A stretch of 64,000 nt of DNA. It comes from an archaeon (GTDB lineage: Archaea > Micrarchaeota > Micrarchaeia > Norongarragalinales > UBA97). Location of the stretch: the NCBI GenBank assembly GCA_020057405.1, contig JAGVFW010000013.1:1-64000 (forward strand). The letters are read 5' to 3'. Positions 35,688 to 36,857 of this stretch are shown piece after piece. The translations under genes were made by a program, and so were the position numbers. Each line of letters opens with the position of its first letter. Position 1 is the first letter of the stretch. The notes below the pieces were generated by a model. It saw nothing but the letters and a program-made list of their open reading frames with translations, did not search any database and was not told where the DNA came from.

Positions 35688-36857
35688 ATGGCTGTTGAAG
35701 AAACGCTTCGGGTCGTCGAAGAAATGGATCGCGACAAAGGCAAACGCGTAGCTAGAGTTAGTAGAGAGACAATGCAAAAATTGTCTCTTGAAACCGGGGA
35801 CCGAATCAAAATTGTCGGCAAGAAAACAACCCTCGGGCTCGTCTTACCAGCACACACAGAAGACGAAAAACTCGATATCATTAGAATTAGCGACATTTTG
35901 AGAGCATCCGCGGCAGTTGAACTTAACCAATTAGTTAAAATATCAAAAATCGATGGCGAAATAGCTAGTCTAGTCGTATTAGCACCAAAACAACCAACTG
36001 CCTACGCGCCCGGATTTGACCAGTACGTCAAAAAGAATCTCATCGGCAAGCCTATCGAGACTGGAGAAATAGTTGAGATAAAAGTGTATGAAACTAGCTA
36101 TCCATTTACCGTCATAACAACTGTTCCCGACAGTGTTGTCGTAGTTAGTTATGAAACCGAAGTAAAACTAAGTACCGAACCGTCTGGGATGATTGACTCA
36201 AAAATATTCAGAGATAGAAAGTTTTTAGAAAGAAAATTAAAGTTTTTGAAAAACCGAACGAATAAGTCCAAGGCCGTATTGACAACGGAGTGGGGTTTGA
36301 CCGGAATAAACATTACCGGAAATATAATCCAACTCAATGAAGATGGATTTAAACAATTGAACGTAACAACTGGAGACATAGTTGAAATCACTAACCAGTT
36401 TGACTCGGATTCATTAGAACAAAAAACGGTTTTAGCTAGAGTCGAACCAATTACCGTCGGAAAATTCAATTTTGCAAGAATGCCGGAGAGTATTAAGGAC
36501 GAATTAATTCTTTCAAGTTCATCAAAAAATATTGAAATCCGAAAATCAACGCTTAAACCGGCTAAGAAAATAGCGCTAGTTCGTCAATCGTTCGGACACG
36601 CATTTTTACCATCAGATTACGAAATTAATCTCCTTAAATTAGACTCGATGTTAGACCGATTATTGTTGCCCGGAGATTCTTTCGACGTTGCCGTAAAGAA
36701 TTCCAGCATTCCATTAGTTGTTGAAAAAATCGAGCCCATCGGCCCTACCATTGTAACAAAGGACACAATCGTCGAATTTACTGAAAAGCCATTAAATCAC
36801 AACCAGCTTCTTGAAGATTTCCAAGCATTACGACAATATCTACAAAACAAAGCCTGA
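35688..36857 (+). CDS. tandem Cdc48 N-domain protein without an ATPase domain
   Basis: Two repeats alignable by eye to the host Cdc48 N-domain ([45 protein letters not shown]); no Walker motifs. Confidence 0.85.
   Translation: MAVEETLRVVEEMDRDKGKRVARVSRETMQKLSLETGDRIKIVGKKTTLGLVLPAHTEDEKLDIIRISDILRASAAVELNQLVKISKIDGEIASLVVLAPKQPTAYAPGFDQYVKKNLIGKPIETGEIVEIKVYETSYPFTVITTVPDSVVVVSYETEVKLSTEPSGMIDSKIFRDRKFLERKLKFLKNRTNKSKAVLTTEWGLTGINITGNIIQLNEDGFKQLNVTTGDIVEITNQFDSDSLEQKTVLARVEPITVGKFNFARMPESIKDELILSSSSKNIEIRKSTLKPAKKIALVRQSFGHAFLPSDYEINLLKLDSMLDRLLLPGDSFDVAVKNSSIPLVVEKIEPIGPTIVTKDTIVEFTEKPLNHNQLLEDFQALRQYLQNKA

Follow-up and report, generated by a model that had tools for sequence, protein, structure and literature searches.

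The closest described counterparts of the protein reported here are the N domains of VAT (PDB 1CZ4) and p97/VCP, which consist of a double-psi barrel and an Nc subdomain and correspond to the Pfam families CDC48_N and CDC48_2. The same two-subdomain fold is found as a motor-less binding module in the UT3 domain of UFD1, which works in the eukaryotic ubiquitin context, and in the UFD1- or Cdc48-N-like proteins of giant viruses. Archaeal N domains have been described as substrate-recognition domains (PMC3493965; ESCRT preprint 10.1101/2024.02.06.579148), and in p97 a key residue for the binding of UBX and UBXL proteins is Tyr143 (PMC5389986). Moreover, a survey of archaeal dark-matter islands lists CDC48-family ATPases (arCOG01308) and Cdc48-related genes as associated with viruses and plasmids (PMC4158269). 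Our search of the open literature, with subscription journals and supplements outside its scope, returned no description of motor-less Cdc48-N proteins or of a Cdc48-N decoy on a mobile element, nor did we find a named partner for the surface of an archaeal Cdc48 that is considered below.

The gene analysed here lies in a micrarchaeal stretch of 64,000 nucleotides (hereafter, the window), which also contains the host's own cdc48. The names of the nearest Cdc48 matches suggest that the host belongs to Micrarchaeota. Its product resembles VAT-N in sequence (E 1e-15) and the N domains of both VAT and p97 in fold. Unlike these proteins, it lacks the D1/D2 motor, comprises two tandem N domains, resides on an integrated element and is changed at the D1-facing positions. 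It differs from the genes in the dark-matter islands, which the accessible part of that survey gives as ATPases, with no N-domain-only form among them (PMC4158269). The proteins of UFD1 type, including viral matches with a TM score of ~0.7, are in turn only 10-15% identical to it and not derived from the host's own cdc48.

Results

The gene is carried by a tRNA-targeting integrative element, as evident from the att repeats, the integrase, the low GC content and an empty site in a genome of the same genus. This element comprises 5,358 bp, is bounded by exact 21-bp repeats of the 3' end of tRNA-Phe and encodes seven proteins (Table 1), none of which was assigned by Pfam to virion, replication or transfer functions. 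In G001, the genome of the same genus, a match to window 40747-41016 follows tRNA-Phe within ~100 bp. The gene for the ribbon-helix-helix-type protein ends 27 nt upstream of the element gene and probably shares an operon with it; a scan for bacterial promoters gave results at background. On the downstream side, the element gene is followed by a Schlafen/AlbA_2 gene. Active prokaryotic Schlafen nucleases are characterized by the motif Ex4(E/D)xK (PMC13056530); the neighbour reads E17-x4-E22-F-Q24, with Q in place of K, and thus lacks the catalytic motif.

A related tRNA-Phe element, whose integrase is 83% identical in its C-terminal part and whose cargo is different, was found in a genome of another family (G007), indicating that the element family moves between hosts. 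Its locus (L083, G007:C72:1-2709) includes only the last 100 integrase codons in frame before the contig ends. It contains an AlbA_2-type gene whose product is 34% identical to the Schlafen/AlbA_2 neighbour, next to a gene that we take to be PIN-like, and the G007 assembly, which is 90% complete, yielded no Cdc48-N copy.

Table 1. Features of the integrated element and of the host cdc48 locus (window coordinates).
Feature	Position	Strand	Description
Host cdc48	17492..19705	+	737 aa; N, D1, D2
Block in host cdc48	17807..17857	+	residues 106-122 of the 737-aa Cdc48
tRNA-Phe(GAA)	33521..33594	+	integration target
Left att	33577..33597	+	21-bp exact direct repeat (tRNA 3' end)
Orphan ORF	33646..34149	-	167 aa; no Pfam, PADLOC or credible Atlas match
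Tyrosine integrase	34150..35298	-	382 aa; PF00589, 84.7 bits (cut-off 27.1)
Ribbon-helix-helix-type protein	35523..35660	+	45 aa; ParG 20.2 bits, just below the 21.4 cut-off
Element gene	35688..36857	+	389 aa; Cdc48 N domain (1-166), linker, second diverged N domain (~195-372), short C-terminal tail
Codons 1-59 of element gene	35688..35864	+	host-specific silent sites
Block in element gene	36003..36053	+	51 bp; residues 106-122 of repeat 1; loop, helix 110-118, turn
Schlafen/AlbA_2 + HATPase_c_4 protein	36926..38308	+	460 aa
Two small hydrophobic ORFs	38368..38858	+	83 and 78 aa
Right att	38914..38934	+	21-bp exact direct repeat

Two further features of this region may be recorded. An AT-rich, imperfect inverted repeat of 38 nt (74%; window 36893-36930 and 38305-38342) flanks the Schlafen/AlbA_2 gene. 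The stretch of low GC content (window 32000-42000) extends beyond both att sites and includes genes for a methyltransferase and for a beta-helix protein with a Pro/Ser-rich stalk; everything between tRNA-Phe and ~40700 is missing from the corresponding site of the same-genus genome.

The element protein falls outside the Cdc48 ATPase family, since its N domains are present and the D1/D2 motor is absent. It scores 85.7 bits against CDC48_N (cut-off 35.1) and 74.4 bits against CDC48_2, there is no Pfam match to an AAA domain, and the reading frame ends at 389 aa. A model of repeat 1, based on a 30-row alignment, attained a pLDDT of 93.5 and TM scores of ~0.8 to both p97-N and VAT-N; a single-sequence model of the whole protein reached a pLDDT of 29.6. 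Repeat 2 is 29% identical to the host domain (E 8e-13), with Pfam reporting only a second CDC48_2 stretch. In a quick protein tree, both repeats were located on long branches and remained unplaced. The only other gene in the assembly that is matched by the element protein is the host cdc48, whose GC3 is 0.67 as compared with 0.37 for the element gene. In searches with repeat 2 (window 36195-36854), four of the top six non-self matches were cdc48 genes of the host's family. Given these matches and its several family-type residues, repeat 2 may have had a donor different from that of the flanks of repeat 1.

A first-pass annotation had drawn attention to a block of 17 residues that is identical in the host Cdc48 and repeat 1 (Table 1) and encoded with seven synonymous and no non-synonymous differences. 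Our analysis confirmed the peptide at both positions and recovered exactly the seven codon differences that had been listed. The flanks are more diverged, as had also been stated: repeat 1 is identical to the host N domain at 83/165 positions, and the next-longest identical run comprises five residues. Repeat 2 contains the reported TTGDIVEI motif, in which 7/8 codons differ silently from those of the host, as well as KPAKKIAL in place of the host's KQAKKISL. At the DNA level, the block forms a sharp tract of high identity (44/51 nt, versus 241/444 outside the block), which is partly forced by the identity of the protein. Plain shuffling of repeat 1 produced an identical run of at least 17 residues 62 times in 200,000 trials. 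When the shuffles were stratified by the conservation of each column among 58 orthologues, with hydrophobicity as a further stratum in one version, such runs appeared in 68-75 of 200,000. Three technical or mechanistic candidates were discarded along the way: collapse of the assembly with the host gene (the longest exact shared stretch is 14 nt), adenine-specific diversity-generating mutagenesis (the differences, judged by eye, involve all bases) and protection of the block by an RNA hairpin (-11.8 kcal/mol for a stretch of 81 nt, a value without a shuffle control).

The identity of the block would be uninformative, according to the annotation, if this segment were the conserved buried core of archaeal Cdc48 N domains in general. 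To place it, 58 orthologues from the order were aligned, out of 60 relatives searched, of which one gave no match and one, a partial sequence ending at residue 105, was excluded. The block ranks 15th among 149 windows in the order but 127th among 145 windows across 51 diverse, ATPase-bearing archaeal Cdc48 N domains. A universal buried core is therefore rejected, and the segment instead varies between lineages while being stable within them. At sites that are at least 90% conserved in the order, the element protein is changed in 28/79 cases, and in 0/11 cases within the block. It also retains the host state at block positions where the orthologues vary freely (D111, 52%; Q112, 43%; I119, 21%). 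The complete peptide is identical in 7/58 orthologues, two of them among the six from the host family and five outside it. At 10/17 positions the block codons equal those of the host, where a random orthologue would be expected to give 8.4 matches (P=0.28), and the best matches to the block DNA among 59 cdc48 genes comprise 45, 44 and 44 of 51 nt, with orthologue L005 (45/51) slightly ahead of the host (44). No donor of the block DNA was identified among these 59 genes, and the block by itself does not point to the present host. Codons 1-59, by contrast, share their silent codons with the host in 21/27 cases, versus 10.5 expected (P=5e-6), and the host ranks first of the 59 genes in this segment, although 29/59 residues differ. 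The proposed capture from the host lineage thus finds support in the silent sites of codons 1-59 but none in the block.

Silent-site divergence is uneven along repeat 1. A maximum chi-squared analysis placed a break at codon 59 (permutation p=0.001, as compared with 0.02-0.63 in eight orthologue controls). The GC3 of the block is 12/17, as in the host, versus 21/64 for the identical residues outside it (Fisher p=0.011). Stratified permutation gave p=0.014 for GC3 over all of repeat 1 and p=0.0014 for codons 60-165, a range that was chosen after the data had been seen. Silent changes from GC to AT and from AT to GC are balanced in the block (3:3) and skewed outside (24:4; p=0.09). The few family-diagnostic sites show the order-majority residue in the flanks (I64, S137, V151), with T104 and I119 being of the family type. 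Two observations argue against a separate patch: windows with a GC3 of 12/17 also begin at codons 36 and 189, and the rate of silent differences is not significantly lower in the block (7/17) than in the rest of repeat 1 (35/64; p=0.42). Moreover, residues 98-105, located in AT-drifted DNA upstream of the block, are identical to those of the host at 6/8 positions with all six codons changed, which indicates selection rather than copying.

Maximum-likelihood estimates were dS 1.1 and dN 0 for the block and dS 1.0 and omega 0.45 for codons 1-59, with dS saturated for the flanks (60-105 and 123-165) and for orthologue pairs; positive selection in codons 1-59 is not demonstrated by these values. 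The data are compatible with a common age of the patch and codons 1-59 (P=0.06). Had the present host supplied the patch together with codons 1-59, the absence of replacements, compared with 29/59 in that segment, would require strong selection. The chromosome-like DNA of the block amid AT-drifted flanks suggests that its silent differences may predate import. DNA trees computed for three segments were set aside, two of them having branch lengths of 3-5. In view of the chromosome-like DNA and the occurrence of the peptide in 7/58 orthologues, the earlier step from purely synonymous differences to selection for mimicry does not follow.

In structural terms, the counterpart of the block in the p97 alignment is residues 124-145, next to the cofactor cleft between Nn and Nc. 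The p97 residues R95, G97, R155 and G157 are sites of disease mutations (PMC5131264), and their equivalents are altered in the element protein (G78E, G80N, N132K and F134Y, respectively). Most disease sites of p97 lie at the N-D1 interface or in its vicinity (PMC5468458). Since P137 and I126, both within the p97 range covered by the block, also appear in the list of such sites (PMC5131264), the block may likewise be situated near D1.

The element gene is a singleton in our searches, which limits every test. Among proteins of near length, the 12 matches comprised the element protein itself and Cdc48-type proteins, and no orthologue was present among the 50% protein representatives or the viral contigs. 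Searches with repeat 2 revealed none in metagenome contigs or in 400 genomes of the class, with a cdc48 as the best non-self match (E 2.9e-13), and genome contigs yielded no orthologue but 11 loci at 44-50%, taken as cdc48. The pattern-based scans detect close relatives only.

Among 400 other genomes of the class, 20 contained at least two N-domain matches, and inspection of all 20 revealed a short, motor-less N-domain gene in four of these Micrarchaeia; the additional matches in the other genomes, as judged by frame length alone, represented long frames, duplicates or pieces at contig ends. The four motor-less copies, which are 31-41% identical overall to their own cdc48, share 7, 6, 4 and 2 of the block's 17 positions with it, and no integrase match was found near them; one of the four sequences may stem from another lineage. 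In pairs with at least 55% identity, the excess of identity in the block was positive in 12/15 cases for motor-less proteins and in 20/24 for ordinary Cdc48 (p=0.43), the motor-less set in these comparisons including the mis-sorted divergent ATPases P0144, P0049 and P0071. The low retention in the four copies and the lack of a difference between the two kinds of pairs indicate that retention of the helix is particular to the element gene. Two genomes of one genus contain stand-alone Cdc48-N genes of 185 aa with the same neighbours (L124, G309:C22, and L134, G365:C16), one of which presumably encodes a nucleotidyltransferase-like protein. P0144, a single-AAA Cdc48 paralogue, is 69% identical to P0059 outside the block and 100% inside it.

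The wider class was examined with the 150 representatives listed out of 1,178 matches. A rule-based sorting of the 149 proteins other than the query yielded 57 with an ATPase, 28 short or fragmentary sequences, 59 fusions to something else and 5 tandems. The N domain is thus detached from the ATPase in 64/149 cases, with at least 6 of the 59 fusions appearing spurious. In 55 selected proteins, the fusion partners assigned by Pfam include TIR, Mrr nuclease, FHA, LRR, Ras, LSM and SHOCT domains; AAA-less fusions to these domains (P0151, P0034, P0055, P0112, P0064, P0106, P0114, P0021 and P0061) form a broad class. The archaeal motor-less tandems and fusions, with P0014, P0016, P0017 and P0128 among them, resemble the element protein in having an N domain free of the ATPase. 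However, they are only 22-30% identical to it where aligned and show no special retention of the helix; at this level of identity, they probably arose independently.

Discussion

Our results point to a gene of composite history whose product most likely works as a free Cdc48 N domain, a putative binder without a motor. We favour, with about even confidence for and against, the interpretation that the block is a younger, recombined patch of chromosomal cdc48 within an older, AT-drifted copy, and that the protein is a putative binder of Cdc48 clients or partners that lacks unfolding activity. In this scenario, an N domain would have been captured long ago from a Micrarchaeota cdc48 and then doubled. 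Later recombination may have refreshed codons 1-59 from the host's lineage and approximately codons 104-122 from the host's or a related lineage. The positions that face D1 in p97 would have been freed from constraint after loss of the motor, leaving a presumably passive binder of, or competitor for, whatever the N domain of Cdc48 recognises. Donors of such a patch would be common, given the seven orthologues with an identical peptide and the close match of the L005 block DNA. The mechanism is demanding, because a 51-bp exchange would have to occur between flanks that are only 54% identical, and for Haloferax volcanii a study of gene conversion describes long tracts, with chimeric genes not seen (PMC8223754). 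Selection may have helped to retain the patch, although identity alone does not show that it did, and a patch and selection can both hold.

A rather doubtful but real possibility is that selection acted alone after a single capture, keeping the cleft-side loop and helix identical so that the protein, acting as a decoy or competitor, can bind the same partner that the host Cdc48 binds. Such mimicry agrees with the combination of seven silent changes and no replacements, with the sparing of all near-invariant sites in the block and with the conservation of the longer segment 98-122 (23/25). When 76 N domains sorted as motor-less, a set that includes the mis-sorted ATPases, were each compared with the nearest Cdc48, the element protein also had the highest excess of identity in the block (0.44 outside, 1.0 inside). 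The segment coincides with the p97 range containing the UBX-binding Tyr143 (PMC5389986) and, differing between archaeal lineages but stable inside them, behaves like a lineage-specific interface. However, Tyr143 itself sits in a two-residue p97 insertion that is absent from the archaeal protein, the peptide lacks host specificity, it is not retained in other motor-less copies, and neither the chromosome-like GC3 of the block nor the break at codon 59 is explained by this model. Simple chance, with a lineage-stable helix remaining unaltered by accident in a gene that shares half of its positions with the host counterpart, appears improbable. While conservation in the order reaches at least 90% at 11/17 block positions, the block excess of close Cdc48 pairs is ~0.1, the divergent paralogue P0144 has a fully identical block relative to its nearest Cdc48, and the scanning of many genes favours the selection of rare runs, such runs were scarce in the stratified shuffles, and the GC3 anomaly coincides with the block.

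The Schlafen/AlbA_2 neighbour raises the prospect of a guard-decoy pair, in which the Cdc48-N copy would act as bait for a viral protein that targets the host Cdc48, and would then trigger its neighbour. The two genes are adjacent and co-oriented, prokaryotic Schlafens are known as anti-phage tRNases fused to sensors (PMC13056530), and Cdc48-N domains are fused to TIR and Mrr-type nuclease domains in other proteins. Nevertheless, we regard this arrangement as very improbable, considering the replacement of the motif lysine in the neighbour, the sister element with its AlbA_2 gene but no Cdc48-N copy, and the absence of a PADLOC match for the Cdc48-N protein. A broader model joins several of these elements: the protein would be a decoy of the essential host Cdc48 on a mobile element of a DPANN archaeon, updated by repeated recombination with host cdc48, while selection maintains the re-imported helix beside the cleft so that it competes for a partner of the host Cdc48. 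It would then represent one member of a widespread, apparently undescribed archaeal class in which the N domain of Cdc48 serves TIR, nuclease and other effectors as bait or for docking. We consider this full combination unlikely.

Should the helix be held by selection, it would mark the partner-facing surface of archaeal Cdc48 and provide a natural bait for the partner. If it represents a recombined patch, the gene would exemplify the re-sampling of an essential host gene by a mobile element, and would serve as a warning that a block with only synonymous differences need not mean selection. Either way, the recurrent reuse of motor-less Cdc48 N domains across archaea provides a lead.

The surroundings of the host cdc48 offer two minor observations. 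Just upstream of the gene lies a frame of 94 codons (window 17183-17467), by eye presumably helix-turn-helix-like, which is kept in 4/29 loci, all of the host's family. It is preceded by a short NFACT-R (Rqc2-like) gene (window 16121-16879); in eukaryotes, both Rqc2 and Cdc48 take part in the ribosome quality-control pathway (PMC6514570). In 14/29 relatives' loci, an NFACT-R homologue lies no more than 1.5 kb from the cdc48 N-domain match.
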